From a virus, in the IMG/VR virus record IMGVR_UViG_3300027777_000001, positions 1 through 64,000 of that record: DNA of 64,000 nucleotides; one strand, given 5' to 3'. Numbering within the stretch: position 1 is the stretch's first letter; every line of letters begins with the position of its first letter. Under the pieces are notes generated by a model, which was not told the DNA's origin, made no database searches, and saw only the letters and a list, made by a program, of their open reading frames with translations. Position numbers and translations under genes: made by a program. Of this stretch, positions 7,901-63,336 are shown piece by piece.

Positions 7901-10900
7901 CAACTCAGTCTGAACGAACTGAGGTAGGTGGGTTGTACGACATTATAAATCAAACTATAGAGATCACTGAAAGTTACTTAAATAATGGGGGTGTTGCTGA
8001 TCCTGATACAGCTGAAATTGTTTTACATGAAGGTGGACACGCTGCAACCATATATGCACTTGTAAAAAATCCAGCGCTTAGAAAACAGTTGTATGACTTA
8101 ATGGAGCACGTTGCTAAAACAAATCCAGAAATGCTGCAAGAGTATGGACTAACTGACACAGCTGAATTTTTAGCAGAAGGTTTTGCTAATCCAAAGTTTC
8201 GTGCAAAATTAAAAGAAATTGCCCCATCAGGGATTAACCGAGGAAAGTTTGCTAACGCTTGGGCAGAGTTTGTGGAGTTTATTCGTAAGGCACTTGGATT
8301 GCCTGTATCTACAAGATCTGCTTTGACGGAGCTCATGGAACTTGGTAATCAAGCCATGCGTGAAACTGGTAAAGCTAAAAATAAAAAGATAACAATAAGA
8401 GAATTTAACGATGCAACAGCAGAAGAAATTGCGCCAATTCAACAAGTAGTTGATCCATTAATTGCTATTAAAAATAATGTTTCTGACTCTAATATAAAAG
8501 ACCTTATAGATGAGGCGATAAAAAAAGCGTCGAGGCAAACAGTAGTAGCTGTTGCTGTTGTTGAAGCTCTAGAAAAATTACGTATTATTTCTGAAACTGC
8601 ACCTGAAACAATTACTTTAGACTCTTTTGACAAAGCTGTTGATTCAATGGTGTTTAAATTAAGTAGCCCAAGAAAAGAAGGCCAAGGTAATTCAACCGAA
8701 GCAGACACACAGACTACAGAGAAGACTCTAGAAGAACAGAATGCCTCAGTCCCTGAGGCTCCTACGAATAAAGATTCTAAGAAAGAAACTAATAAAGAAT
8801 CTAATGCTGGTGGTTTAGATGTTCTTAACCAACCTGTATCGCCTAAAGGTACAGCGTATAACTTACGCAATGTCATCACGGATTACTTTACCCAGAACGC
8901 AGGCAAGGATACCAACGGTACGCAAAGACCCTTGGTTAAGGTTCGTGACTTCTTGACATCACTCTTGGCTGAACCAACCCTTGCTGAACAGTTTGTGAAG
9001 GGTAAGGAGTTATCTGAGCGTCAACAAGAAGCTGTTGCTTTCTTTGCTAAGACAGCCATGGCATGGCTCCCAACGATTCAAGAAGCTTTGTTTAAGCGGG
9101 CAGATCCTACTTACTACGCGGATAACGATCCTTTGCAATTTCTCTATACCGAGGTCTTAGATGCCAACGGTAAACCTACAGGCAAGTTTGATGCAGATGA
9201 GAACTACAAGACTGCGATTGCTTATGCAGCATTTTCTACCATTCAAGACATGGCAGGAAATGGGGAGTTAAATAGTCAAGCCACAATCAATAAGATGCTG
9301 GGTCGTTTGGCTGACCATGAGGTTACGCCTGAGGAATGGAGAGCCTTGGGTAGGATCGGTACGCTTGAGGATCTACTGGCTAATGCAGCAGGGCAAGTAG
9401 CCTATGAAGCTCTTGGTTTACAAGTCAAGAATATGGAGACTTGGAATAACTTACCTGCTCAGATTAAGACATCGATGGGAGCTCATGTTATGAAGCTTCT
9501 CATCGAGCAAGGCTACATTGAACGCCATCTCCTTGATGCCACAGATATCAGTGCAATGAGGGGCTATAGCTCTACTGGTGGATCAGATACCACGACCAAT
9601 TACACAGGGCTTGAAAACCTGTCTTACTTTACTTTAGCGCGGGAAGGACAGCCCACAGATCTGCAGCGTCCATTAACAGGTGAGTTGCAACAGATCGTAG
9701 ACTCTGTGAAGGGTACGCAAGGTATCTTAGATAAAGTGTTCTCTATTGAATCAGCTACCAGATGGCCAAGCCTTGAGCCATTAGAACCCCACCAAGTCAA
9801 TGCTAAGAACTCTGATCAATTAGTTCCTGATACGTTGGGTACGATTATTGATAAGAAATTAAAAGAAGTGAATAAGTTACGGCAAGATGTCTGGCACGTT
9901 TTAGGGGGGTTCACTCGAGATTTTACCCTTGAGATGATGGGGAAAGAAGATAGTACCCAAGCGCAAAAAGGACGCAGGTTATCGGTTGAAGCCAAGAACC
10001 AGAGTCTAGAAAGAGAGTTTGATCAGTACAGGGAACTTGGTACGATTCTTTTAACCACAGGGACTAAGGACTTAGGGCAGCCGTACTTCTTGGATTACTC
10101 AGTGTGGAAACAACACCGAGTCGGAATTGCGACGAATGGCTTTAACCCTAACTCGAGTAAAGCTCAGCGTCAACAGTCGTACCAGCCTGATTGGGAAACC
10201 AAGATTGATAGGAATGACTCTGCACAAATGGATAATTTCTATTTGGGAGTTGCAGAGGGTTTTGGTATTGCAACAGACAATGTTCCAAATGCAGTAAGCC
10301 TCGTAACAATCAAAGATCGGTTTGCACAGGCCGATGTAGTAGAGGCGGTCGAGATATTGCGTCAACGTATGGTTAGTGTTGATCCAGAACCGTTTACCGA
10401 TGCTGAGCAACAGAAGATAGTTTCACTGGTTAAGAAAGGCAAAGAGAATCTTCATTCTCTGAATTCATTAATTGCTTTGGCTCATTTCTCTGAAGCGGTT
10501 AAGACTAATTCAGATACATTCACGGTTCAGATCCCCGCAGAGCGTGATGGTAAGACGAATGGCCCAATGCTGGCTAATGCCTTCTTTGGTGTGGGATCAA
10601 GCCCTGCAGAGCTCTTTAAGACCCTCAATCGTGGGGGATTCTTTGAAGTCGGTAATCCAGATACACAGTTCAATATCTGGAAAGGTAAAGGCAATCTAGA
10701 CCTGTACGAAAAAGGTACAGGGAATTTGCTTAGGACTCTTCAATGGTTGATCACAGAAAAGAAAGTCTTTGGTTTTATTAAGGATACCGTTCAGGTATTC
10801 ACCAAGAGTTTGACCGACCCTAAAACAGGGGGTGTCAATTCTGTCGGTCGAAACATGATGAAGAAGCCTACCCAAGAGGTGGTCTATGGCTCGTCTTCTA

Positions 10901-13900
10901 AAACCACCGTGGATAACATGGCACAGGTTTTCATTGAAAGCGTCTACGCCCGTATCGAGGAAGTGGCTAAAGACGATCTCTCTCACATGACGTTGGCTAA
11001 GTTGATCAAAGAATTAAACAGTCTTTTGTACGGAACAGACACAAAGTTTAACTCGAACGATACCGCACAAACAATCTTGGATAAAGACTTCAGTAGTGCG
11101 GATATAGCAGCAATGAAGGACAAGTTTATAAAGACTCTTGGCAAAGCAGTCAAAGAGACTGTGAAGAGTGACTTCCATGCATTCACATTTAGGACACAGA
11201 TCTTTACAGCCACAGCTGGCTTGACCTTTTCAATCTATAAGGCAGTCTACGATACGGCTCGCAAAGACTACATCAAGGAGCTGACTGAGCTTGGGGAATT
11301 TGATGTTAATCCCGCCTTTGAACGTAGGGGTAAGAATGGGAAAATGTCTCAAATCTCTGCTAGGCAAACACACGATTTGAATGCTGCTCAGGAAAAGGTA
11401 TTAAAAGAACGTGTCTTAGCAGTCTACCCAATCGTACATAGTTTGTTCTCTAAAGAAAGCAATCAACTAGAGGCAGGATTGTTTATTAGTAAGACTGAAA
11501 GAAAGTTATCAAAAGATCCAAACTACCAAGTTGAAGTCCAATTTGGAACCCAAATTAAAGATTTGGGTAGATCCCGCGTCAACATGGCTGCAATGCAAAC
11601 CAACCAAGTGGGCCCTGGTGTAGCAATGTTGCCTAACTTAATTCAGGCTTCAGATAGTTATATCTCGCATTCAGTACAGGCTGCGATGAATGCGCTTAAC
11701 CAACATGATGCATTGATTACAGGGCTTGGAAAGACTAAAGAAACTGCACAGCTTCTTAATGCTGCTACGTGGAAACTGTTATTGAACTATTCCCCAGCCA
11801 CAGAAATGTACGAGGCATTCGTACGTAACATTCTGGGTATGGAAAGTATGCTTGCCAAGAAGGAAGTCTCTAAAGATGTACTAGCCCTCTTTGCTGCATC
11901 TATTGTCGAGCAGACTTACCGCTTTAATGGGCCAGATACGGATGTGCCAATTGATCCCCATGAGTTTCTAGGGATCCATTTAGCCCTGATGAAGAATATG
12001 TCTTTTCGTGCTGACAGTATGAAGTTCTCTACTTTGGGTCTGACAGCATCAATTGACCAGTACACTTTTGAGGGTGGAAACTTTGCAGTGGATGAGAAGT
12101 TACGAGAAGCGGCTCTAGCCAAGAAAGCTGAGCTGGTCTCTGAGATTGATCCTGAGACACAAGCTGCTGTTGATAGTCTTGAACAACGTCTCCAAACTGC
12201 GATCACTGCAGCAACAATCGCTGCGAATAAAAAGATTGCTCAGACTCTCAATATTGAACTCGATCCTGAAGGATATGGCGTAACTGAACAACAGTTGGAA
12301 GACCTGCGTACAGAGAGCCGAGAAGATGCAAGTATCAACGACACGGTTGCTGACCATTTAACTAACGCCCAAGCCTTTGCCTTACTCTCACACGCAGTCA
12401 AGGATAAGTCTTTGGGCGAGACTGTTGTTGAGATGCTTAAAGAGGTCATGACTAAGTTGCGAGAATCCAAGGGTGCCATGAACTTGGTGACAGCCTTAAA
12501 GGTCTTACAGCCTGCTAACCGTGCAGAGATTGCTCAGTTACTCATGGATCGAGCCAGTAAGATTCCTGCTAACTTGTGGGGTATTCAAGGTACGCCAGAC
12601 ATTAAGAGTGAGGCTCACTGGGTAGACTTCTTTGAGAAACGGGGCAATGTTAAAGGCGAACAATTGGTTCGTGCTTTAAAAGATAGGTTGATTGAGCAAG
12701 GTGGCCCAAGTAACGTCAAAGACTTCAATTTGGAGATGCTTAACCGGATCAGTAAGTTGATTAGCCCAACGCTTACCATTCGTTATGTCACGCCATTCAC
12801 AGCACCTAGCCAAGTTATCCAGCAGGCCAAAGACAACGCACGGGCTTGGTACATTGCCACAACCGATGGTGTGGATACGATCTACATTCTCTCTACAGAC
12901 TTTAAACACTCTGGCTTAACCACGGAAACCCTCCTGCATGAGATTCTCCACAGTGCTGTAGCTCGAACCATTAAGTCTGAGCAAGATGCACGGAAAAGGA
13001 ATCCAACCCGTAAGACTCCATTACTTGCCATCATCGATGACTTGGAGCTTCTTCGTTATTTGGCTAAGAAACATATCGATGCTGACCCAGAGTTAGCCGC
13101 TAAATACGGGCCAGCAGTCAGTAGCATCGATGAGCTTATTGCTTGGGGAATGACAAACACAGCCTTCCAACAAGAAGTCTTAAACAAGATGCAAGGGGTT
13201 CCTTCTCGCACCAACAACAATGCAATCACTGGTTTAAAAGCCATGATTAATGCATTGGTCGCAATCCTGTTTAAGAAAACAGAAGGTCGTGAGGCAGAGA
13301 TTCTTGGTTCTGGTTTAAGTATCTTGATTACTAACGTGTCTGATTTATTTACTGAGGCCGAGAACAAGCAAAGCCAGACCATTAACGAAACCCTGAATCG
13401 AAGCCAAACCCATACGGCTCCAGATCCAGCTTTCTATACCACCGCAGAGATATACGATTCCTTGGCAGGAGTCTCTCCCGCACCCCTAGCTTTTGATAGC
13501 CAGCTGCGAGACCTACTCAGCGGGATCGTCAATAAGCTGCATGGCACAGCGGGAGTCTTGCATGAATCCTTAATGGATCGTCAAGCCTTATCTGCTCAAG
13601 ACGTATACCTCAAAGCACTGGCTACAGGACAAGCCCCCTTTGCATCAGCCACCATTGCCTCTGGCTTTCAGTTCAGCCAACAGGAAGGGTTCGTCATCGA
13701 GCAGGTTGAGGCCACAGTCAGAGCAGCGATTGATCGTAATGAGAATACCCAGAGCTTTGCCTACAAAGGCTTGGATGCTCTGTACAACGAAGCCAAAGCG
13801 AACCTTGCGCCTAAGGACTTCCATCAGGGTGACTGGAACACAGCCACGCAGGTAGAGAAGGATACAGCCCAAGAGTTGTATGACTTCTTATTTGTCATGG

Positions 13901-16900
13901 CTAAGGCTCTACCAAGCACCAACCCATCAACCGCAGGAAATACACATGCTAATTCAGATCGATTAGCCCATCTCAGCAGATTCGCTGCAATGGGTCTTGC
14001 CCATGAAGGGGTTAATAAGCTCCTGCAGGGCATGACAGGATCTGGGCTGACTACCACGGCTACCCCTGCACCAACGAGCTTTCTAGCCCGTCTGAAGGCC
14101 TTGTTTGATCAGATCTTGGCTTGGTTCAGTGACAAGCAGACTGGAATCAAACCGGGTGACAAACCTGATGCCAGGTTAGAGAAATTAGTTGATACCTTGG
14201 TTGGGATTGAAGCTAAGAAACGTGCTGCAGCCATGGCTCGACAAAATGCTCTGTTCACAGGTCTACAGAATGTGTCCAATAATGTTCTTAACGCGGCTAA
14301 CACGGGTATCAATAAAGTAGGGGCAGCCGCCGCAAGAAGCAACAATGGGGCAGTGAAAGGCGTAGGGTTTGTGATTAACGCGGTCTCTGGAGGTAGGGTT
14401 AACCAGATCATTAATAATGGCATGAACTACTACGCTACATTGAATGGTGGTAAGCCAGACCTCTTCACAGATACTGTGGCTTATGTGCGTGGGCCAACGT
14501 CTCAGATGGAGGAGTTGTTCCGTATGGGTAAGAAGCTAGAAGCGGATCGTCGAGCATTCATCGACAACACAGCTACGCTTCTCTTGGCTGCATATCGTAA
14601 TGGTGGGCAGGATCTGACACAGATCCAGAAGAAAGCCATTACTTCCTTGGTACGTTCTGATGCCCAGTCACTCTTAGCAGCAGGCTACACCATGGCTCAG
14701 TTAGCTGAGTTCTTGGGCAACGGGACACAACGCCAAGACGAGATTACGAAGCTTGAAGATAGTCTGAAATCCTTACATCCCCAGTTCTATAAACAGTTCT
14801 TGGGTCAATCCAAGCAACTTGCATTCATCTTGGCTAATGGAAAAGCCACGCATGAGAACTCTATGCTGAACGCTTTGAATATTGCACGGATGTACAACAC
14901 ACCCACAATGGGTCAGTTAACCGTAGCAGAAGAGGCTGCAGTCCAAGCCTTGGTAGATCCCTTGGTGTCTCTCTGGGCGATTGAGTATTCACCCACAGTG
15001 CTTCGTGAGACATCCAGAGATGTGTTGCTCGATGAGTCAGCACGCTCCAATGGTGAGAACGGGATTGCCGCAACCCTTGCCATGCACGCACACTTACTCA
15101 AAGATTCAAAAGATAAGCTCTTTGATGGCAGCGAGGTATTGCGTACCAAGGGCTATTTACCAGAGGTATATAACCCAAGAACAGACATCCAAGTAGCAGG
15201 TGATGTCGAGGGTCGGAACTTAATTGACAAGGGCTACTCAGTGGGGGGTGTTTTGCCCAAAGATCCTAATGACCCCGATCCTCAGACCGTAAAAAAATTG
15301 TATGTACGTGAGGACTCAGGGATGGTGGCTCATGTTACAGGGATGATTTCCTTGAAAGACATGAAAGCTAAAGGCTCTGCTCAGATTGGAAAAGAACGTA
15401 GGTTCTATAAACCTAAGGGAGATTGGAATGCCAGTGAAGTCGTAAGAGTCACTGGATCTCAAAGAAACGCCATTGCTTGGATGGCTCAAAATGGCGATAC
15501 ATTTGATCCACGAAACGTCACTGGGACGTTCATGATTCCTACACTAACAAGCGAAGGGGATATTTCTAACTATCGCTATGAAATGAGCCATGCCCGTAAG
15601 GATTCAATCCTCGAGCGAAACAATAACTTTGAACACGTACTTGGGGTATTTGCTGGCAACACATTCGATAAGATTACCTCTGCCCAACATAACGCTAAGG
15701 TTATTCAAGCCTTGCATGACCACTACTCAGTGGACTATGCAGGACGGTCTGTGTCATACGTAGAAGTAGGCCCTAATAGCCGAGACCCAGCCATGCGGGA
15801 AGTCTACCGCTTGCTTCCTGAGGCCACAAAGAAGGAGATAAGAAGAGTGTGGGGAACGGAAGCCATGCTGGTTAGAAACGACATGATGAATCTGACATTT
15901 GGGTATAGGAAATTTAGCCTGTCCGAGATGTTTGATAAAGACCCTTCTACAAGGAATGCTTATGAAGATCTGTTTGTCTCGATTGCTACCTTTGTCGTAG
16001 CAGGGTACGCTAGACTGCAACTTGGAATGGATCCAGCCCAAGCCATGCAGTATGCCAAGCGTACAGGGGTGATTGTTAAACGAGCCGAGGATGCGTGGAA
16101 GACCATCTCTGATGAAACCAAGAATGCGATTGTGGTTAAGACTGGAATCGTGATGATGGGTAATGTCTGGAGTAATGCCACGCTCTTAATGATGCACGAT
16201 ATCTCATTGGTGGATATTGCTAAGCACCATAAGACAGCATTTACCGCAGCCCGAGAGTATCAAGAGGTGAGCGAGGAGTTGTTTAAAGCTCAGACTCAAT
16301 TGGATACTAACTACAACGTGGGTAATAGGAAAGCTTTAGAACAACGGATCTTAGTCCTAAAAGACAAGATCGCCCGTAACCCAGTGACCGAACTTATGGA
16401 CTCTGGCTTGATGCCTACCATCGTGCAAGACGTTAACATTAAGGATGACACATACGCTTATGACTCTAACTTTGTGAAGAACATTAAGGCTAATGTTGCT
16501 TCCCTTAATCCAACAGTCTTAAACATCGGTAAGCAGCTCTACATGACTAAGGACACGCCACACTACAAGATGTTGGCTAACCTGACCCAGATGAGTGACT
16601 TCGTGGCTCGATACACTTTGTATCAACACTTGACCACAAAGAGCCAAGACCCCTTGAGCAAGAAAGAAGCTGCACGGGTATCTTCTGAATCCTTTGTGAA
16701 CTACGACATCCCGCTGCCTAAAGGTATCCAGTATCTAGATGACATCGGGATCTTGCCATTTACCAAGTACTTCTTATCGATGCAAAGAGTGTTGGCTTCC
16801 TTGGTTCGAGAACATCCCGTAAAGGTGCTGATGACCTTGATGGGCAATAACTATTTAAACTTAATGCCAACAGTGATGGATGGGTCAGCGTTTAGTCGCT

Positions 16901-16995
16901 TTGGGAATAACCCGTTTAGGTCAGGGCCATTACGATTCATTGGTGCGGTAGAACACATCCTACCCATCAAGTATGCGATGGGGTTATTCAGGTAA
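4960..16995 (+). CDS. Virion-encapsidated RNA polymerase (N4 gp50-like vRNAP)
   Basis: 4011 aa; single-subunit RNAP motifs ERDGKTNGP (A), RNMMKKPTQEVVYGS (B), NQHDAL (C); no Cys found on reading, as in N4 vRNAP. Confidence 0.95.
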   Translation: MATFDIDQYLADQHNASLEASKLAANIPKPVEPVNTVPEFPDNSIFGSSPTNIKDKLAEVYRASKQKVEQLATDIGNIKLAQNPETVTLTDQFKASLAGVQKDLNGSLTAPLDPDPQKNTLAYKNWVANGSPGFEYDPESTAAQFNNGVARVDSGIARSIGNIKAGLLAPGLVLADNATTEQEKAAYNRRAAGFEYGDGQRANPGDDALLNAPSSVNLSAITGVGDNPNYQLGTSGGSLKERATQIVPERKATILELLDHSRATSKQIDDIATSHDLGSLVDHAAEDRVTAAQKDWVPQNLKMRDSFSINRKSAASNFAEGNFKEALINAESALADGASVTGHYAANTVRDLFNHPDIIEAAVQDNSPQLALGLIPVVGATALGVLNAGYGAQMYAKGEQKYTKETGIPFAPQGERNVQAVASGAAAAAEFVGDLIPVGGITKAGQAISGLGKDAAAVAAKVSAEQAAKTAAEAGFVNRVKAGTLDTAKAMAGEFTTETFQSPLENIANREAYDPYGQALSSVMGAAGGAGMNGPSSVVTQLGKAAQAVQDKKAVAEQAKAAQQKEAIDFYQAAEKNDASIYTDPTSKTYDPVKAAGVWFTHSQQATTTPETKAENLAKVTDLQAQMQADIESVKGSVESSQPKAQAALLDQQAKLQASLSIATPAQTEQINQALGELQQKIDQPVLDTRGLKDAGLRATKMEKQLEQITAMRTRLDLEAGAQGSQDGINAQRASTEVPVAPVASTTNNQDGKSSYDPSGYMDTKEWQAIDAQHSPVEAQWIAMESGPESQAFYEKNVKDLTAQKDAIRDAWQKNDPANASVNQTVNQSANQSPLPASAKDIPLNPASRIGDLLDLDNQDHEGVFDAIKILAMVRKGHRRGMTADQLKNDTFIRTSLAGLTLRAKTDKTAQQGLDYFNKKFDDIVSQSDESAASNAIAKDLLGNTVPLKDLLQHIINENKDPELTKIAKQILKVAGDVPVSTQSERTEVGGLYDIINQTIEITESYLNNGGVADPDTAEIVLHEGGHAATIYALVKNPALRKQLYDLMEHVAKTNPEMLQEYGLTDTAEFLAEGFANPKFRAKLKEIAPSGINRGKFANAWAEFVEFIRKALGLPVSTRSALTELMELGNQAMRETGKAKNKKITIREFNDATAEEIAPIQQVVDPLIAIKNNVSDSNIKDLIDEAIKKASRQTVVAVAVVEALEKLRIISETAPETITLDSFDKAVDSMVFKLSSPRKEGQGNSTEADTQTTEKTLEEQNASVPEAPTNKDSKKETNKESNAGGLDVLNQPVSPKGTAYNLRNVITDYFTQNAGKDTNGTQRPLVKVRDFLTSLLAEPTLAEQFVKGKELSERQQEAVAFFAKTAMAWLPTIQEALFKRADPTYYADNDPLQFLYTEVLDANGKPTGKFDADENYKTAIAYAAFSTIQDMAGNGELNSQATINKMLGRLADHEVTPEEWRALGRIGTLEDLLANAAGQVAYEALGLQVKNMETWNNLPAQIKTSMGAHVMKLLIEQGYIERHLLDATDISAMRGYSSTGGSDTTTNYTGLENLSYFTLAREGQPTDLQRPLTGELQQIVDSVKGTQGILDKVFSIESATRWPSLEPLEPHQVNAKNSDQLVPDTLGTIIDKKLKEVNKLRQDVWHVLGGFTRDFTLEMMGKEDSTQAQKGRRLSVEAKNQSLEREFDQYRELGTILLTTGTKDLGQPYFLDYSVWKQHRVGIATNGFNPNSSKAQRQQSYQPDWETKIDRNDSAQMDNFYLGVAEGFGIATDNVPNAVSLVTIKDRFAQADVVEAVEILRQRMVSVDPEPFTDAEQQKIVSLVKKGKENLHSLNSLIALAHFSEAVKTNSDTFTVQIPAERDGKTNGPMLANAFFGVGSSPAELFKTLNRGGFFEVGNPDTQFNIWKGKGNLDLYEKGTGNLLRTLQWLITEKKVFGFIKDTVQVFTKSLTDPKTGGVNSVGRNMMKKPTQEVVYGSSSKTTVDNMAQVFIESVYARIEEVAKDDLSHMTLAKLIKELNSLLYGTDTKFNSNDTAQTILDKDFSSADIAAMKDKFIKTLGKAVKETVKSDFHAFTFRTQIFTATAGLTFSIYKAVYDTARKDYIKELTELGEFDVNPAFERRGKNGKMSQISARQTHDLNAAQEKVLKERVLAVYPIVHSLFSKESNQLEAGLFISKTERKLSKDPNYQVEVQFGTQIKDLGRSRVNMAAMQTNQVGPGVAMLPNLIQASDSYISHSVQAAMNALNQHDALITGLGKTKETAQLLNAATWKLLLNYSPATEMYEAFVRNILGMESMLAKKEVSKDVLALFAASIVEQTYRFNGPDTDVPIDPHEFLGIHLALMKNMSFRADSMKFSTLGLTASIDQYTFEGGNFAVDEKLREAALAKKAELVSEIDPETQAAVDSLEQRLQTAITAATIAANKKIAQTLNIELDPEGYGVTEQQLEDLRTESREDASINDTVADHLTNAQAFALLSHAVKDKSLGETVVEMLKEVMTKLRESKGAMNLVTALKVLQPANRAEIAQLLMDRASKIPANLWGIQGTPDIKSEAHWVDFFEKRGNVKGEQLVRALKDRLIEQGGPSNVKDFNLEMLNRISKLISPTLTIRYVTPFTAPSQVIQQAKDNARAWYIATTDGVDTIYILSTDFKHSGLTTETLLHEILHSAVARTIKSEQDARKRNPTRKTPLLAIIDDLELLRYLAKKHIDADPELAAKYGPAVSSIDELIAWGMTNTAFQQEVLNKMQGVPSRTNNNAITGLKAMINALVAILFKKTEGREAEILGSGLSILITNVSDLFTEAENKQSQTINETLNRSQTHTAPDPAFYTTAEIYDSLAGVSPAPLAFDSQLRDLLSGIVNKLHGTAGVLHESLMDRQALSAQDVYLKALATGQAPFASATIASGFQFSQQEGFVIEQVEATVRAAIDRNENTQSFAYKGLDALYNEAKANLAPKDFHQGDWNTATQVEKDTAQELYDFLFVMAKALPSTNPSTAGNTHANSDRLAHLSRFAAMGLAHEGVNKLLQGMTGSGLTTTATPAPTSFLARLKALFDQILAWFSDKQTGIKPGDKPDARLEKLVDTLVGIEAKKRAAAMARQNALFTGLQNVSNNVLNAANTGINKVGAAAARSNNGAVKGVGFVINAVSGGRVNQIINNGMNYYATLNGGKPDLFTDTVAYVRGPTSQMEELFRMGKKLEADRRAFIDNTATLLLAAYRNGGQDLTQIQKKAITSLVRSDAQSLLAAGYTMAQLAEFLGNGTQRQDEITKLEDSLKSLHPQFYKQFLGQSKQLAFILANGKATHENSMLNALNIARMYNTPTMGQLTVAEEAAVQALVDPLVSLWAIEYSPTVLRETSRDVLLDESARSNGENGIAATLAMHAHLLKDSKDKLFDGSEVLRTKGYLPEVYNPRTDIQVAGDVEGRNLIDKGYSVGGVLPKDPNDPDPQTVKKLYVREDSGMVAHVTGMISLKDMKAKGSAQIGKERRFYKPKGDWNASEVVRVTGSQRNAIAWMAQNGDTFDPRNVTGTFMIPTLTSEGDISNYRYEMSHARKDSILERNNNFEHVLGVFAGNTFDKITSAQHNAKVIQALHDHYSVDYAGRSVSYVEVGPNSRDPAMREVYRLLPEATKKEIRRVWGTEAMLVRNDMMNLTFGYRKFSLSEMFDKDPSTRNAYEDLFVSIATFVVAGYARLQLGMDPAQAMQYAKRTGVIVKRAEDAWKTISDETKNAIVVKTGIVMMGNVWSNATLLMMHDISLVDIAKHHKTAFTAAREYQEVSEELFKAQTQLDTNYNVGNRKALEQRILVLKDKIARNPVTELMDSGLMPTIVQDVNIKDDTYAYDSNFVKNIKANVASLNPTVLNIGKQLYMTKDTPHYKMLANLTQMSDFVARYTLYQHLTTKSQDPLSKKEAARVSSESFVNYDIPLPKGIQYLDDIGILPFTKYFLSMQRVLASLVREHPVKVLMTLMGNNYLNLMPTVMDGSAFSRFGNNPFRSGPLRFIGAVEHILPIKYAMGLFR

Positions 16996-57748: not shown

Positions 57749-57967
57749 TTATGGGAATAGAATTGCCATGGCACGGATGTGCTTGGGTATGTTGTCGTGA
57801 TTGGGTATCCACTGCCAATCGTATCCGCCGATACCTTTATCCATACAGAGGTACCAATTTTCTCCAAATTTCTTATATGTTCCTAAAATCCGTTCGGTAC
57901 CCCAATCATCCCCATTGGGGAAGACTAGAACCTCACCGTTGGGACTGAAGTGATACTTTGATTTCAT
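57749..57967 (-). CDS. Hypothetical protein between RNAP II subunit genes
   Basis: ATGA-coupled 72-aa ORF. Confidence 0.55.
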   Translation of the reverse strand: MKSKYHFSPNGEVLVFPNGDDWGTERILGTYKKFGENWYLCMDKGIGGYDWQWIPNHDNIPKHIRAMAILFP

Positions 57968-58872
57968 GTTGGAACTCCTGTAACAACCTCTTCATTGAAG
58001 AGCTCGATGCTTGCCTTCTTGAAGGGTGTGCCTTGGGTGTTGATGTGATAGCCGCAGGAATAGATACGGCCTCTCTTGTCAACCTTGTGGGTTAACCAGA
58101 ACTTATTACCTTGGTTCACTAAGAGACTGTAGAAGCCATAAGACTGAGTCTTAAAGTCTTGCCATAGACTGATCTGCTCTTGGTTCTTGGCTACGAACGT
58201 AGGCTCCTCTTCAACACTAGATAAGAACTCAGTGTTGATCTTTAGAGGAACTTGGTTCATTAGATTCAGAACATCTAAGCAGATGTCTCCACCATGGTGA
58301 TTACCTTGACCCAGTATCAATGAATCATTGTGGGTCAAGTAACCTGAGCTGTAGTTGCTAGTGAGCTCCAGTGGACTACACACCATGGGTGGTAAGTAGC
58401 TACTGTTACGCACAAAGTCTAGAGTCTGCTTGGTTAAGAAGATCCTAGACACCACTGTTAAGCTCGCTGTCCTACCTACCTTACCAATGTCAAAGGCATC
58501 GGTTAAGCATAGTATGGCTAAGATCTCAGCGACTGTTGTGACTGCTTGTACTCGGTCACTGAACTTCAATCGACTCGCCATCTGTGCTGCAACAGAAGAC
58601 AACATCTCTTCTTTCTGGAAGTAACAGATACCTACGAAGATGTCTGTCACCAAGGTCTCGAAGTCTAGCCCTTCAAGCTGGGCTATCCTTCTATTCTTGG
58701 ATTCATAGTAGGTACCTGCTGCATACTTCTCCAGAAGTTCTACACCTTCTTGTATCTTGGCTTGAGTATCAGGGTTGTCCCTGATGTCACCAGAGATATA
58801 ACCGTCAATGAACTTACGGCTATATCTTTCCTCATTGGCTTCTTGCATGAAGATCTGCTTCAAAGTATCCAT
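57964..58872 (-). CDS. RNA polymerase II small subunit (N4 gp15-like)
   Basis: PPMV..P, SGYLT, DKRGRIY (DxxGR) motifs. Confidence 0.9.
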   Translation of the reverse strand: MDTLKQIFMQEANEERYSRKFIDGYISGDIRDNPDTQAKIQEGVELLEKYAAGTYYESKNRRIAQLEGLDFETLVTDIFVGICYFQKEEMLSSVAAQMASRLKFSDRVQAVTTVAEILAILCLTDAFDIGKVGRTASLTVVSRIFLTKQTLDFVRNSSYLPPMVCSPLELTSNYSSGYLTHNDSLILGQGNHHGGDICLDVLNLMNQVPLKINTEFLSSVEEEPTFVAKNQEQISLWQDFKTQSYGFYSLLVNQGNKFWLTHKVDKRGRIYSCGYHINTQGTPFKKASIELFNEEVVTGVPT

Positions 58873-59292: not shown

Positions 59293-59311
59293 CCTATACA
59301 GAGGCGTAGCC
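59293..59311 (-). promoter_or_regulatory. Putative vRNAP hairpin promoter
   Basis: CCTATACAGA-GGC-GTA-GCC on the template (+) strand. Confidence 0.65.
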
Positions 59312-59336
59312 CCCCATGCATCACCCGCAGCGAGGG

Positions 59337-59369
59337 AAAAGAACCCAGCCCTCCCGAAGGAAGACTGGA
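59337..59369 (-). terminator. Intrinsic terminator
   Basis: UUCG hairpin plus U-rich tail on the minus strand. Confidence 0.7.
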
Positions 59370-59375
59370 TTAGGT

Positions 59376-59669
59376 TTACTTTGAGCCAAGACGATTTGAT
59401 TCTTTGAGTCGGTAATAATCGTTGGTGGCAATGACTAGCTCACGTTGCAAGCTATCGACCTCTGTATTAATTATCGTGAACATCTCTTCTATGCCCAGCT
59501 GTTTGATTCTCTCAAGGCCGTAACCTAAAGTGGTTAAGATACGATGCGTACCTGTCTCAACTCGGTCATTTACCTTCCCGCATAATTCATCTACTACTTC
59601 TAGCTGGGCTTTTAAATTTGCAATAACAGCTAATGCTGTTTTGTGGTCATCGATTGCGATGTTGTTCAT
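59376..59669 (-). CDS. Early hypothetical protein
   Basis: Start MNNIAI after ATCCAAAGGAATC leader. Confidence 0.6.
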   Translation of the reverse strand: MNNIAIDDHKTALAVIANLKAQLEVVDELCGKVNDRVETGTHRILTTLGYGLERIKQLGIEEMFTIINTEVDSLQRELVIATNDYYRLKESNRLGSK

Positions 59670-59721
59670 GTTGATTCCTTTGGATTGAGCCCAATCATCT
59701 CGAAAGATGACTGGATTAGGG

Positions 59722-59934
59722 TTAAGGCGTGATGTTTCCTGCAAGTTTGAGCTCTAGCACTTCAAGACGAATCTGGTTCGCTCGGTCTTTGATGTGTGCA
59801 ACACAAGCAGGGGTGAAATCGCAAACACCAATTACCATTTCATTCTCGATCCCGAGGATGTACTCGTTGATGTATCGAATGTGTAATTTCATTGCTGAGA
59901 GATGTTCGTTCATCTGTTCGGTACGTGCGCTCAT
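59722..59934 (-). CDS. Early hypothetical protein
   Basis: Same leader; 70 aa. Confidence 0.6.
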   Translation of the reverse strand: MSARTEQMNEHLSAMKLHIRYINEYILGIENEMVIGVCDFTPACVAHIKDRANQIRLEVLELKLAGNITP

Positions 59935-59955
59935 AATGATTCCTTTGGATGTGAG

Positions 59956-60285
59956 TTACCAAATACCTCTAGTTATTAGCTTTGCAAATTCATGGTTTTC
60001 TTTTTCTAATTCTTCAGCAGTGACATCGTTTGGTGCTTGGCGACGGTAGCTTGCGTACATAGCTGCACCATCTCGTTCTTGTTGCAAGTTATCGACTTGT
60101 TCAAGGATCAAGATGAGTTTGCCCAAGGTAGTCGAATGCTCTCTGGTTTCGGCTGTGAAGTTGAGTTTGATCATGATGCGATCAATAGCTTCTTCGGTAT
60201 AGTCTCGAACAAGTGCTTCTGCTCGGTCTATCTTGGCTTGAAGACTGGCGTTAATTCGAGCTTGTTGTTCTTCGGTCAGTTTCAT
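59956..60285 (-). CDS. Early hypothetical coiled-coil protein
   Basis: Same leader; 109 aa. Confidence 0.6.
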   Translation of the reverse strand: MKLTEEQQARINASLQAKIDRAEALVRDYTEEAIDRIMIKLNFTAETREHSTTLGKLILILEQVDNLQQERDGAAMYASYRRQAPNDVTAEELEKENHEFAKLITRGIW

Positions 60286-60318
60286 GATGGTTCCTTTGGA
60301 TTGTGTAATCGGGGATAT

Positions 60319-60349
60319 AAAAAAACCTACAACCCCGAAGGGAAGTAGG
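60319..60349 (-). terminator. Intrinsic terminator
   Basis: UUCG hairpin plus U7. Confidence 0.75.
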
Positions 60350-60367
60350 CTTATCAGTGCTGAGGCA

Positions 60368-60886
60368 TTAAGCCAGACTGAATTTAGGACGGGCTGCTTT
60401 CTCTCCGGGGCGATAATCCCAGGTGAGGTTTGTTAAGAACTCAACAATGTTCTTTGGATCAGCTTCGAGATAGTGCATCAGACCTGCGTGCTGAGTGTTA
60501 TCAGCCTTCAGTTCGATAAAGCCAAGCTTCGCTGTGCCGCCGCCCTCTGCTGGAAGGTGAAAGTTCAGATAACCCGAAGTGTTGGCTTCTGTAGCAACTG
60601 CTGGTACTGGAGAAATCATCTTGATCTGTGATTTCTGGTTGCGGCGGGGCGATTGGTAATCAACCGTCACCTTAGCTGCGAAGATAGCCAAATTAGCTGG
60701 GTTCGCTTCAAGGTATTCGCGCAACATCTTCTGGTTCTCAACAGCGTCTTTGAGACCGATAAAGCCTAACTTGTACAAACTATCTTCTTGTGCAGGAAGA
60801 TAGGAATTCAGAAAACCACTTGCTTTCCAGTCTTGGTCAGAAGATGACGATGAACGTGGAGCTTTGTTGGCATAGGGAGAAGCCAT
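60368..60886 (-). CDS. N4 gp2-like ssDNA-binding RNAP II activator with an internally duplicated domain
   Basis: WKASGFLN.YLP..KLG.I.LK recalled as gp2-family-like; motif present twice; early-region position. Confidence 0.6.
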   Translation of the reverse strand: MASPYANKAPRSSSSSDQDWKASGFLNSYLPAQEDSLYKLGFIGLKDAVENQKMLREYLEANPANLAIFAAKVTVDYQSPRRNQKSQIKMISPVPAVATEANTSGYLNFHLPAEGGGTAKLGFIELKADNTQHAGLMHYLEADPKNIVEFLTNLTWDYRPGEKAARPKFSLA

Positions 60887-60928
60887 GATGATTCCAATAT
60901 GAGAGATATGACAGGCACAGGATTTGTG

Positions 60929-60947
60929 CTGTAACAGAGGCGTAGCC
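60929..60947 (-). promoter_or_regulatory. Putative vRNAP hairpin promoter
   Basis: CTGTAACAGA-GGC-GTA-GCC. Confidence 0.7.
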
Positions 60948-61561
60948 TTGGTGGAGAACACGCAGACGTACCGAACCGAAGCAAGGCTCGTGGCTATGCG
61001 GGCAGGAAGGTACTTGTTTGGATTATGTATAACGAAGCTTAAGTGCGGCGATGAGATAGATAACGATGATTTTGAGTAAATCGTTTCTTTGTGAAAACTT
61101 CTAACATTCCTTGGATTAGGTAGAAGACAAAGGCCTTGTCATTCTTACCTTTACAGAGTGTACGGAGTACACCTCAGTGTATTAAGTAGTACTTAGTATT
61201 AAGTAGTATATTTTAAACATTACTGTTTGGTAATGAAATGTAATCCTTAACCTTAAATGATGTATGTAAGTCCTTAAAACCTTACGTGTATTACCGAACA
61301 TATGATTATTGAGTCTATCTATATCCATACCTTCGGCCCTCTTATATAAGAGAACTAAACCTATAGGTAAATAAGGAGTTATATATAACTACTTGTAGGT
61401 ATCTATATATGTATAGATAAGTAGTATTAAGTATGTATATAAGTCTTATAAGACTATATATAAGATCGCAGGGTAGGGTCAGGGGTTTGGAACCGATGTC
61501 TGCAGTCTAGCCGATGGATTATTCAAACTATCTAATAGCCTATTTATATTAGGGGTATTAG

Positions 61562-61589
61562 AAAAGAAAGACATACCCCGAAGGGTATG
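61562..61589 (-). terminator. Intrinsic terminator
   Basis: Minus strand CATACCC-TTCG-GGGTATG plus U-rich tail. Confidence 0.75.
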
Positions 61590-61594
61590 CATTG

Positions 61595-61759
61595 TTAGTA
61601 CGGTGTTTGGCTTGAGAGATACCAGGTGTAAAGATGGTGTTGGTGATCCTTTTCCAAGAACCTACTCTCCTCAGTATCTTTAGCAATTATTGCTTCCCAA
61701 CGAGCATCTTGTTGACGCTCATACTCATACTCATCGAAGTCTTCTTTAGTAGTGACCAT
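61595..61759 (-). CDS. Early small acidic protein (not in ORF track)
   Basis: Hand translation MVTTKEDFDEYEYERQQ..., 54 aa, AAGGA RBS. Confidence 0.6.
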   Translation of the reverse strand: MVTTKEDFDEYEYERQQDARWEAIIAKDTEESRFLEKDHQHHLYTWYLSSQTPY

Positions 61760-61761
61760 GG

Positions 61762-61923
61762 TTATTCCTTAATTGGTTTAGAAGGCCTTAAACGGAGGCA
61801 CAAGGCGATTGCAGCTCCAAGGGTAGTAAGTAGTCCAACCCAGTAAAAGAACTGTGAGAGGGCTACTGCAAGGGCTAGGATGAGCACTAGTGTCAGTGCT
61901 CCAAGAAGGAGATAGGATTTCAT
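61762..61923 (-). CDS. Early small membrane protein
   Basis: ATGA-coupled start MKSYLL; two TM segments. Confidence 0.55.
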   Translation of the reverse strand: MKSYLLLGALTLVLILALAVALSQFFYWVGLLTTLGAAIALCLRLRPSKPIKE

Positions 61924-62105
61924 AAGGAATCCATCCAAGCATTTGCTGTAACCCAAGCTGCAAGTTCTGCATCTTGCTTGGCAAGGACACTGAGGTAATA
62001 AGCCTCAGCCTCTGCTGCATCAGCATCTGTACGATGCCAGAAGTAATGCTCCTCTCTGGAGAGGTCTTCAGCTTTAACTGTGTCGATCTCTGTGATCTGG
62101 TTCAT
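61920..62105 (-). CDS. Early hypothetical protein
   Basis: 61 aa, GAGGA RBS. Confidence 0.6.
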   Translation of the reverse strand: MNQITEIDTVKAEDLSREEHYFWHRTDADAAEAEAYYLSVLAKQDAELAAWVTANAWMDSL

Positions 62106-62108
62106 GGC

Positions 62109-62267
62109 TTAATCCTCAAGCATAGCTGTTGAGAACATGAGAGAAGTCTCACGCTCTTGACCCGATACTTCTAATTCGTAGAGATAGTTCTCGAGACTGA
62201 CGAGATCCGCACGGTCTTCAAACTCACCAGACCAGGCTTCTTGTTCGTGGTTGTATTGGCTAGTCAT
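62109..62267 (-). CDS. Early small acidic protein
   Basis: Start MTSQY after GGAG. Confidence 0.6.
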   Translation of the reverse strand: MTSQYNHEQEAWSGEFEDRADLVSLENYLYELEVSGQERETSLMFSTAMLED

Positions 62268-62298
62268 GGTGCTACTCCAGAGAAGTAGACAAAATTGT

Positions 62299-62317
62299 CT
62301 ATGACATACGCGTAGCG
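62299..62317 (-). promoter_or_regulatory. Putative vRNAP hairpin promoter (compensatory stem variant)
   Basis: CTATGACATA-CGC-GTA-GCG. Confidence 0.65.
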
Positions 62318-62328
62318 AACAGCAAGGG

Positions 62329-62482
62329 AAAAAAAACACCCAACCATCCCGAAGGATGATTGAGTGTTAGATGTCTGCTATCCCTAGCACATGAGTTGGA
62401 TAAGCCTCATGCTCGCTGTCTGCCATGCTACCGGGCAGACTCAGTTGGAATAGACGCAAATACTTCTTTCTTTTGCTATTCC
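62329..62482 (-). ncRNA. Candidate structured small RNA (about 155 nt) ending in a terminator at 62329-62368
   Basis: Own promoter motif and terminator, four stem-loops, no ORF with an RBS. Confidence 0.5.
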
Positions 62483-62499
62483 GTTACAGAGGCGTAGCC
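62481..62499 (-). promoter_or_regulatory. Putative vRNAP hairpin promoter
   Basis: CCGTTACAGA-GGC-GTA-GCC(TCT), 6-bp stem. Confidence 0.7.
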
Positions 62500-62523
62500 T
62501 CTTGGATATGTACAGGTGCATAT

Positions 62524-62554
62524 AAAAAAAGGGGATAACCCATAAGGGTTATCC
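62524..62554 (-). terminator. Intrinsic terminator
   Basis: GGATAACCC/GGGTTATCC stem plus U7. Confidence 0.8.
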
Positions 62555-62563
62555 ACTCTTGTG

Positions 62564-62758
62564 TTACCAATTCTTCATACGTTCTTCAAGACGAGCTAAA
62601 CGAAGCTCAAACTCTTTAGCGTAATGAGCCTCAGCTTCAGCACGACAAGCCTTTGTGTACTGACGATCTTTAATAAACTTAGGCATACTTACCTTAGGCA
62701 AGTTAAACTTAGGTAAAGTAATAGACTTAAACGACATCGTAGGGATAGTGATATTCAT
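62564..62758 (-). CDS. Early small basic protein, paralogue of 63061-63279
   Basis: Start MNITIP after GGAG; x-L/M-P-K repeats. Confidence 0.65.
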   Translation of the reverse strand: MNITIPTMSFKSITLPKFNLPKVSMPKFIKDRQYTKACRAEAEAHYAKEFELRLARLEERMKNW

Positions 62759-62800
62759 GTGATGCTCCGAAAGGGGAAAGAGATGTCGGGACGACATCTT

Positions 62801-62819
62801 CTATAACTGAGGCGTAGCC
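62801..62819 (-). promoter_or_regulatory. Putative vRNAP hairpin promoter
   Basis: CTATAACTGA-GGC-GTA-GCC. Confidence 0.7.
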
Positions 62820-62830
62820 AATAGCTTAGG

Positions 62831-62870
62831 AAAAAATACACACACCATCCCCTAAGAGGGATGATGTGTT
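62831..62870 (-). terminator. Intrinsic terminator
   Basis: CATCCC..GGGATG stem with extension plus U6. Confidence 0.7.
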
Positions 62871-62973
62871 TACATCTATGGTGTTGCTGGGTTGGTTTGA
62901 GAAACCGTATACATATCTGCCATATCTCATGCACAAAACAGATAAGTGAAGAGCCTCGTAATGCATTTGCTTT

Positions 62974-62992
62974 CCATTACATAGGCGTAGCC
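62974..62992 (-). promoter_or_regulatory. Putative vRNAP hairpin promoter
   Basis: CCATTACATA-GGC-GTA-GCC(TAT), 6-bp stem. Confidence 0.7.
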
Positions 62993-63013
62993 TATTAGAT
63001 GTATACGGGTATT

Positions 63014-63058
63014 AAAAAAGAAACCAACACACACCCAGTTAGGATATGTGCTGGTATC
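63014..63058 (-). terminator. Intrinsic terminator
   Basis: Long imperfect G.U-containing stem plus U6 on the minus strand, right after the ORF stop. Confidence 0.6.
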
Positions 63059-63060
63059 GA

Positions 63061-63279
63061 TTAACGAGATAACATTGACTTCAGTTCTTTGACTCGAGCT
63101 TGAGCTGATGGAGTAGACATGAACTCTTTGTACATAGACTCAGTAGTAGGAGTAACAACAGTAGCCTTAACAGTGCGAGCCTTAGTGGTACGAGTGAAGC
63201 AGCTAGGCATAGCAAGCTTAGGCAGTGTGATGTTGAATGACTTCAACGAGACTGATACAACTGGGAGTGTGATCTTCAT
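63061..63279 (-). CDS. First early gene, small basic protein
   Basis: Start MKITLP after GGAG. Confidence 0.65.
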   Translation of the reverse strand: MKITLPVVSVSLKSFNITLPKLAMPSCFTRTTKARTVKATVVTPTTESMYKEFMSTPSAQARVKELKSMLSR

Positions 63280-63317
63280 GGTGTATTGCTCCAATGATTA
63301 AGTAGATGAACATTCAT

Positions 63318-63336
63318 CCATCACATTGGCGTAGCC
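63318..63336 (-). promoter_or_regulatory. Putative vRNAP hairpin promoter
   Basis: CCATCACATT-GGC-GTA-GCC. Confidence 0.7.

Follow-up and report, generated by a model that had tools for sequence, protein, structure and literature searches.

In the phages N4 and LUZ7, the early promoters are template-strand hairpins with a 3-nt loop that are used by the injected virion RNA polymerase (vRNAP), with P1–P3 described for N4 and nine early promoters mapped in LUZ7 (PMC4496689, PMC9163698). The early units lie at the first-injected genome end, upstream of the RNAPII genes, and are short, with intrinsic terminators; those that have been described encode proteins, namely gp1, gp2/Drc, and RNAPII. LUZ7 also has three putative small RNAs, sRNA1–3, which are shorter than 250 nt, lack coding potential, and have their own start site and terminators (PMC9163698).

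We found no description in the searchable literature of a stand-alone non-coding RNA (ncRNA) made by the injected vRNAP of a member of the Schitoviridae. Most of the small RNAs known from phages come from prophages or are late or processed transcripts. The trans-acting small RNAs of bacteria and prophages, such as DicF and AgvB/AsxR, are 50–250 nt long, are transcribed from a promoter of their own, fold into several stem-loops, and end in a Rho-independent terminator whose U tail is long.

Here, we analyze a stretch of 64,000 nucleotides (the window) that comprises positions 1–64,000 of IMGVR_UViG_3300027777_000001, a 74,079-bp IMG/VR virus record. An initial annotation of this DNA, made from the letters alone, had singled out positions 62329–62482 of the minus strand as a candidate structured early small RNA. 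This locus, here called unit B, appears to be a complete promoter-to-terminator unit without a gene, placed among the cassettes that are predicted to be expressed first.

Results

The phage and its early region

The window contains a giant ORF of 4011 aa (4960–16995) and a homologue of the RNAPII small subunit (57964–58872), which is 47–49% identical to its best annotated or cultured counterparts in N4-like phages; the best matches come from phages of Pectobacterium, Pseudomonas, Klebsiella, and others. Due to the combination of these two genes, we assign the phage to the Schitoviridae as an uncultured, N4-like member. The sequencing runs that contain it are freshwater metagenomes.

The early region occupies the minus strand and extends from about 63.4 kb to the RNAPII genes. 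Seven copies of the hairpin motif GGCTACGCC, all on the minus strand, are spread over the part that lies between the RNAPII genes and the genome end (59.3–63.4 kb), and the string GCTACGC is found nine times in the window against 3.6 expected, a count that none of 100 shuffles attained. The seven promoters share an invariant TGT and an invariant G that lies 14 nt from the loop centre (alignment column 48), and on the template strand the motif reads as a C-GTA-G triloop hairpin. The hairpins are on the same strand as the RNAPII genes and upstream of them, in a phage with a giant virion RNA polymerase, as is the case for the first-injected end of N4 and LUZ7 with its short, intrinsically terminated units.

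Relatives, which were located through the conserved late gene adjoining the early region, have repeated same-strand 9-mer hairpins with other stems (GCCTACGGC, CGCTACGCG, GGCTTCGCC), which we take as comparative support for the hairpin. Across loci L012–L089, the minus strand upstream of the late gene carries clade-specific 9-mer hairpins whose loop reads T-N-C in the RNA-like orientation; besides the three just named, they include CCCTGCGGG, GGCTCCGCC, and AGCTTCGCT. These clade differences look like promoter specificity drifting through compensatory stem changes.

Three further features of the early region are recorded here as side observations. The stretch 61000–61600 is AT-rich (GC 0.33–0.35 vs. 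about 0.45 around it) and has no credible ORF. The small early proteins encoded at 62564–62758 and 63061–63279 (minus strand) are paralogous, both with the N-terminal motif M.ITIP/LP..S.KS..ITLPK. Finally, a 15-nt tandem repeat of 2.6 copies at 62674–62713 encodes a repeated LPKF-like peptide.

Promoter, predicted transcript ends, and terminator of unit B

Unit B is preceded by the hairpin promoter AGAGGC-TAC-GCCTCT (62488–62502, minus strand), which has six perfect pairs and a 3-nt loop centred on A62495. On the template strand, it presents a GTA loop closed as C-GTA-G, in agreement with the pattern of a vRNAP promoter, that is, a template-strand 3-nt G-N-A loop with C-G closure on a stem of 4–7 bp. 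The template-strand loop has T as its central base; N4 differs in requiring a purine at −11. From the promoter and the terminator, we predict a primary transcript of about 150–154 nt that ends in a U run (62329–62482, minus strand). Early starts in LUZ7 map 13–14 nt from the centre of the hairpin loop (PMC9163698), and with this spacing transcription of unit B would likely start at G62482 or G62481, a predicted G start that fits LUZ7; the N4 rule of 11 nt would instead give an alternative start at 62484. The intrinsic terminator (62329–62368, minus strand) has a 15-bp stem with G-U pairs, a UUCG loop, and eight T (U in the RNA), and its pair probability is 0.98. Its stem is the longest of 13 terminator-like sites in the 58–64 kb region. 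The proposal of a self-contained early transcription unit is thereby borne out at the level of its parts, as the hairpin promoter, about 115 nt with four stems, and the terminator are all present in the minus-strand sequence.

The window has a second gene-less unit, unit A (62830–62993, minus strand), with the promoter ATAGGC-TAC-GCCTAT (6 bp), a body of about 105 nt, and a 13-bp terminator, and a third such unit is found on L011, a 5-kb IMG/VR contig from a relative, which is described below. Among 13 promoters of the clade (window 59304–63335, L011 1261–2296, and L003, the locus of another relative, 5931–6181), stems of six perfect base pairs occur only before the three gene-less units, while the ten coding cassettes have 3–4 bp. 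The extensions of the stems covary, being AGA/TCT in unit B and ATA/TAT in unit A and L011. These 6-bp promoter stems, together with the strongest terminator, suggest that the gene-less units are built for strong, discrete expression.

The metatranscriptome run X5, from a lake, yielded a single 209-nt contig, no part of which lies on unit B: it covers only 62123–62271 and then continues into different upstream sequence. The contig matches the early gene at 62109–62264 exactly before it departs, and a contig of run X2 departs into the same different sequence at the same point. The shared departure implies that a phage variant without unit B directly upstream exists in the RNA library, where DNA carry-over is possible. 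Unit B is not covered in runs X3 or X4.

Coding potential

The initial annotation had named a 19-codon frame without a ribosome-binding site as the only ORF of the unit. The missing ribosome-binding site was confirmed, but the frame is not the only one: the 19-codon ATG frame (62426–62367, minus strand) is extended to 30 codons by a TTG start at 62459, giving the peptide MADSEHEAYPTHVLGIADI for the 19- or 30-codon version, and an 8-codon ATG frame encodes MRLIQLMC. The Shine–Dalgarno energy of these three frames is −0.9 to −2.6 kcal/mol, and that of the three gene-less units together −0.9 to −3.8 kcal/mol, not counting one trivial frame of 7 codons in unit B and, in the terminator of unit A, two of 5–6 codons. 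Real early genes have GGAG-type sites, and the anti-Shine–Dalgarno pairing is −5.5 to −6.0 kcal/mol in seven of the eight that were scored. The starts in unit A, the 5–6-codon terminator frames aside, likewise have no Shine–Dalgarno site.

Where the 19-codon frame starts with ATG, L011 reads TTG, followed two codons further on by an in-frame TAA, and the indels that separate the two units are 9, 1, 2, and 3 nt long. Conservation of the 19-codon ORF as a translated product, which had been named beforehand as an outcome that would speak against a small RNA, is absent, as the frame is broken in L011, the only diverged homologue. Searching the three gene-less units by tblastx against 87 related loci returned nothing credible (best E 0.009, on the wrong strand), and no remnant of any known cassette gene was detectable in them by tblastx against the related loci. 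Judged by Shine–Dalgarno site, start codon, and conserved ORF, unit B does not qualify as a small-protein cassette; it has no credible or conserved ORF.

A micro-peptide translated from the 19- or 30-codon frame or from the 8-codon frame is accordingly the explanation to which we give the least credence. The frames do exist, the stop of the 19-codon frame falls at the same aligned place in L011 with only a 3-nt indel inside the frame, and unit A has a short frame too, which begins MAD. Against these points stand the missing Shine–Dalgarno site and the lost start and early TAA in L011, and the amino-acid identity between the two frames is confined to a block that is conserved at the nucleotide level. 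In addition, the start codon would sit in the loop of stem 2 beside its 3′ arm, with the second codon already within the arm.

Internal structure

The four stems, the UUCG terminator, and the duplicated GCAGAC that the initial annotation listed are all found in the minus-strand sequence (all coordinates in this paragraph refer to that strand). Stem-loop 1 (62447–62482) pairs GGAAUAG (62482–62476) with CUAUUCC (62453–62447) around a purine-rich loop, with a pair probability of 0.78, and would form the 5′-terminal hairpin of the predicted transcript. Stem-loop 2 (62418–62440; pair probability 0.80) consists of GUCUGCC (62440–62434), the loop CGGUAGCAU, and GGCAGAC (62424–62418), while stem-loop 3 (62390–62411; pair probability 0.94) consists of CAUGAG (62411–62406), the loop GCUUAUCCAA, and CUCAUG (62395–62390). 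Stem-loop 4 (62376–62389), also named in the initial annotation and included in the comparison with L011 below, reads UGCUA-GGGA-UAGCA. The first GCAGAC copy (62423–62418) lies in the 3′ arm of stem 2; the second (62373–62378) overlaps the 3′ arm of stem 4 and is an alternative partner for GUCUGC.

This alternative pairing, which had also been predicted, is nearly isoenergetic with the best fold (−53.3 vs. −53.7 kcal/mol), and it raises the question of a cis-acting leader, in which read-through of the terminator, modulated by the bistable GUCUGC/GCAGAC element, would feed the operon transcribed from the 62310 promoter. Extensive, time-dependent read-through of terminators has been described for LUZ7 (PMC9163698), and in our phage the next promoter and its operon follow directly downstream. 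However, neither of the two folds involves the terminator hairpin, which keeps its pair probability of 0.98, and the downstream operon has a promoter of its own. The 3′ arm motif is present twice in L011 as well, as GACAU, but there the alternative fold is 3.7 kcal/mol worse, and a different cassette follows the homologous unit. A function as cis-leader therefore seems to us highly doubtful.

The most conserved segment of the body is the block AGCGAGCAUGAGGCU (AGCGAGCAUGARGCU; 62403–62417, minus strand), which runs from the linker through the 5′ arm of stem 3 into the beginning of the stem 3 loop. For GCGAGCAUGARGCU, 13 of 14 positions are the same in unit B and L011, compared to a difference of 39% over the aligned body, and the segment is the best candidate for an interaction site.

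The folding z-score of the whole unit is −4.4, which arises mostly from the terminator, since the body alone (62372–62484) has a z-score of −1.5, with 10 of 200 shuffles folding as well. The stems of unit B are thus not beyond chance in the single sequence, and structural support has to come from comparison with the homologue. Stem 1 is not special to unit B either: of the 13 early transcripts predicted for the clade (early starts of window 59294–63319 plus those of L011 and L003), most open with a small hairpin at or near +1, which may be a general feature of 5′-end protection or promoter escape.

Comparison with a homologous unit

The L011 contig is related closely enough for the neighbouring late gene to be 95% identical at the amino acid level, and it has a single gene-less unit, at L011:2040–1884. 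This unit joins a promoter of the unit A type, identical to the unit A promoter of the window (62985), to a terminator of the unit B type, 95% identical to that of unit B. Between these ends, 39% of the aligned positions differ from unit B. As the stems had been fixed beforehand by the initial annotation from unit B alone, and the bodies were aligned with MAFFT without structure information, the pairs could be put to a fair test in the homologue.

The stems comprise 23 pairs, 21 of which are comparable, and 19 of these 21 are kept in L011, five with changes on both sides, an outcome that upholds the predicted stems. Pairing over the four stems amounts to 95.5% of cells, compared to 23–42% in controls with slid partners, and the five both-side changes (two in stem 2 and three in stem 4) compare with 0–2 in the slid controls. 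When the 40 substitutions are placed at random, the probability of keeping at least 19 pairs is P = 0.0003, and P = 0.003 for the part after stem 1 only; under a stricter null, with the positions of change fixed and the new bases random, it is P = 0.025, and P = 0.09 for the double changes. The structure conservation index from RNAalifold is 0.645 vs. 0.13 ± 0.08 for column shuffles, none of which reaches 0.645 in 500 trials. The substitution rate is alike in stem columns (17 of 42 changed) and non-stem columns (40 of 102).

The stems contribute unequally. The GGAAU/AUUCC of stem 1 is invariant, which makes this stem comparatively uninformative. In stem 2, two pairs have changed on both sides (C-G to A-U and C-G to U-A), one has gone from C-G to U-G, and one is broken. 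Comparative support for stem 3 is weak: only four pairs align, including two as G-U, and a 3-nt gap removes two others. For stem 4, L011 has CAUG-GGGA-CAUG in the same columns, with three both-side changes, an identical loop, and one broken outer pair. Several of the kept pairs are G-U, and these would pair in the RNA of the unit strand and not in that of the complementary strand. Since it rests on two diverged sequences, the evidence for stem conservation is real but thin.

Distribution and cassette exchange

A contig from run X2, a second freshwater sample, contains unit B unchanged (62348–62507), and this run holds more than one arrangement of the early cassettes. In run X4, from a third sample, unit A follows a different first cassette and has two substitutions. 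L003/L010, which represent the closest relative as judged by RNAPII (93% aa), are without both gene-less units; in L003, one cassette encoding a 48-aa hydrophobic protein replaces about 950 nt (four cassettes) of the window. Unit B must hence be dispensable, being missing from L003. The 64-aa protein encoded upstream (62564–62758) has an 88% homologue, P0002, on a 73.8-kb contig that probably carries another homologue of the unit. In its patchy occurrence, unit B behaves like the small accessory early proteins encoded nearby.

Wider searches returned little. A scan anchored on the gene for the 64-aa protein led again to the L011 contig and to nothing further, and blastn of 62250–62600 against 50,697 phage records gave no match. 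In viral contigs, the exact pattern of stem-loop 2 was not found, and the exact patterns for the promoter with start region and for the terminator were found in the L011 contig only; the promoter and start region pattern had one chance match among metagenome contigs, on the non-phage contig L091, and was not found in prokaryote genomes. The conserved block had 39 matches in viral contigs, none recognized by the covariance model, and at least 120 matches across all phyla in prokaryote genomes, as chance predicts. The covariance model R1, built from unit B and L011, was searched in 125 sources (124 loci plus the window); beyond the training pair it returned only L084 (E 0.13) and L058 (E 1.8), and it did not recognize unit A. 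Both hits were rejected as relatives of unit B, because the matches are the ribosome-binding site and ATG of real genes.

In distant relatives and other clades, the short early cassettes that we inspected all encode small proteins with a Shine–Dalgarno site and ATG. An automated screen proposed gene-less cassettes in other clades, but all inspected candidates proved to be coding, which means that the terminator calls of the screen were false. Unit A has a hairpin resembling stem 2 (UAUCUGUU/GGCAGAUA, pair probability 0.94) and is otherwise not recognizably homologous to unit B.

Close relatives swap early cassettes as modules (window 62330–63277 vs. L003 5986–6167 and L011 1250–2300), with breakpoints in shared promoter and terminator sequences and even within genes, such that the gene for the 64-aa protein shares only its 5′ half with L011.

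The wholesale swaps just described, namely the L003 replacement and the promoter/terminator mosaic of L011, would be expected if unit B were an empty or decayed cassette, that is, a promoter and terminator left over from a small-gene cassette or from recombined modules, yielding a short RNA without function. The divergence of 39% in the body next to a terminator that is 95% identical fits this idea, as do the unremarkable folding of the body (z −1.5) and the coding nature of all inspected short cassettes in other clades. A dead cassette would not, however, be expected to keep 19 of 21 pairs with compensation or to reach a structure conservation index far above shuffles, nor does it account for the promoter hairpins of the gene-less units, which are the best in the clade and have covarying extensions; moreover, no remnant of a known cassette gene is detectable. 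We regard an empty cassette as the main rival to a structured RNA, possible and on balance unlikely.

The long promoter stems of the gene-less units also bear on a second rival, in which the act of transcription is the function and the RNA a by-product: the units would serve as loading or relay stations for the injected polymerases, pulling the genome in or feeding the next promoter 10–25 nt downstream. N4 injects only four vRNAP molecules; its first 500 bp are taken up passively, and early transcription drives further entry of the genome (PMC4496689). The likely genome end is no more than roughly 1.2 kb away from the gene-less units of the window, and the next promoter closely follows each terminator. 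The compensatory changes in the internal stems are left unexplained by such a role, L003 does without either gene-less unit, and a strong terminator after 150 nt would limit any pulling. We consider this role decidedly improbable, second to the empty cassette; the cis-leader and the micro-peptide are less likely again.

RNA classes and possible targets

Of the RNA classes that the initial annotation had offered, three found no support, and the fourth, a decoy, is kept as a candidate role. Sponges of the CsrB/RsmY/RsmZ type display numerous GGA motifs in their hairpin loops, between about 4 and more than 20, whereas the RNA of unit B would have three, with one exposed in the GGGA loop of stem 4 and the others located in stem 1 and a terminator arm; we therefore discount a Csr/Rsm sponge. 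ToxI-like antitoxin RNAs consist of tandem repeats with a unit of about 36 nt, and Tandem Repeats Finder detected no repeats in 62329–62482, which speaks against an antitoxin mimic of this kind. The suggestion of a lysogeny regulator gained nothing from the analysis; the Schitoviridae are virulent phages. Rfam, proposed as a check, gave no match in the window at gathering thresholds; in 62200–63100 there were four matches only, with E values of 5–9 and none within unit B, and unit B was not identified as a tRNA or tmRNA. The terminator resembles those of Hfq-dependent small RNAs, being Rho-independent with a long U tail (15-bp stem and U8), but it is not preceded by a U-rich tract (AGACAUCUAACAC), and we see no evident ARN module for Hfq. 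In stem-loop 2, the sequence of the stem differs among unit B, L011, and unit A, which counts against sequence-specific mimicry of a CRISPR repeat, as in an RNA anti-CRISPR.

Neither unit B nor unit A is more complementary to the phage genome than shuffled queries are. For the complement of the conserved block, there was no near match close to gene starts in the phage genome (11 matches vs. 8.8 expected), and a raw duplex scan returned trivial antisense self-matches only.

Discussion

We see an even chance that unit B is an accessory immediate-early unit that makes a structured ncRNA of about 150 nt. The anatomy of the unit, the absence of any ORF that is credible or conserved, and the base pairs kept through compensatory change are observations; to these the proposal adds transcription, stability, action in trans, and a target, which we infer. 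The injected RNA polymerase, presumably the product of the 4011-aa ORF (4960–16995), would recognize the extruded template-strand hairpin at 62502–62488, begin transcription at G62482/62481, and stop at the 15-bp UUCG hairpin followed by U8. The 5′-terminal hairpin and the 3′ terminator hairpin would cap the RNA, and both would be expected to slow attack by RNases, with three short hairpins and the conserved segment AGCGAGCAUGARGCU held between the caps. The RNA might then act in trans on a host factor, either by base pairing or as a protein-binding decoy, as the counterpart of the small host-takeover proteins made from the neighbouring cassettes; we put the prospects of such trans action at about even as part of the whole reading.

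In comparison with the described systems, unit B resembles the early units of N4 and LUZ7 in promoter architecture, genome position, and termination, but differs from the described ones in having no gene. Like sRNA1–3 of LUZ7, it is small, non-coding, and from an N4-like phage; sRNA1–3, which we set apart by their description and not by sequence, are late, mutually overlapping, and located in the orf69/orf70 intergenic region, whereas unit B is an early hairpin-promoter cassette. Its size, promoter, stem-loops, and terminator with U tail also recall RNAs of the DicF and AgvB/AsxR type. Unlike these, it has no evident Hfq module upstream of the terminator, is predicted to be the product of a phage single-subunit polymerase, and belongs to a virulent phage.

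Conclusions

Unit B is small and has clear ends, in a phage that is uncultured. Even if it should prove to be a dead cassette, it would still show how early cassettes are shuffled at promoter and terminator modules. More tentatively, and at somewhat less than even prospects, we propose that the vRNAP of N4-like phages also makes stand-alone, highly expressed structured RNAs, which would form a new class of immediate-early ncRNAs that disarm or reprogram a host factor before any phage protein is made. Unit B, unit A, and the L011 unit would then be among its first examples. As an RNA effector needs no translation, it would be the fastest possible tool for host takeover or anti-defence, made within the first minutes of infection.
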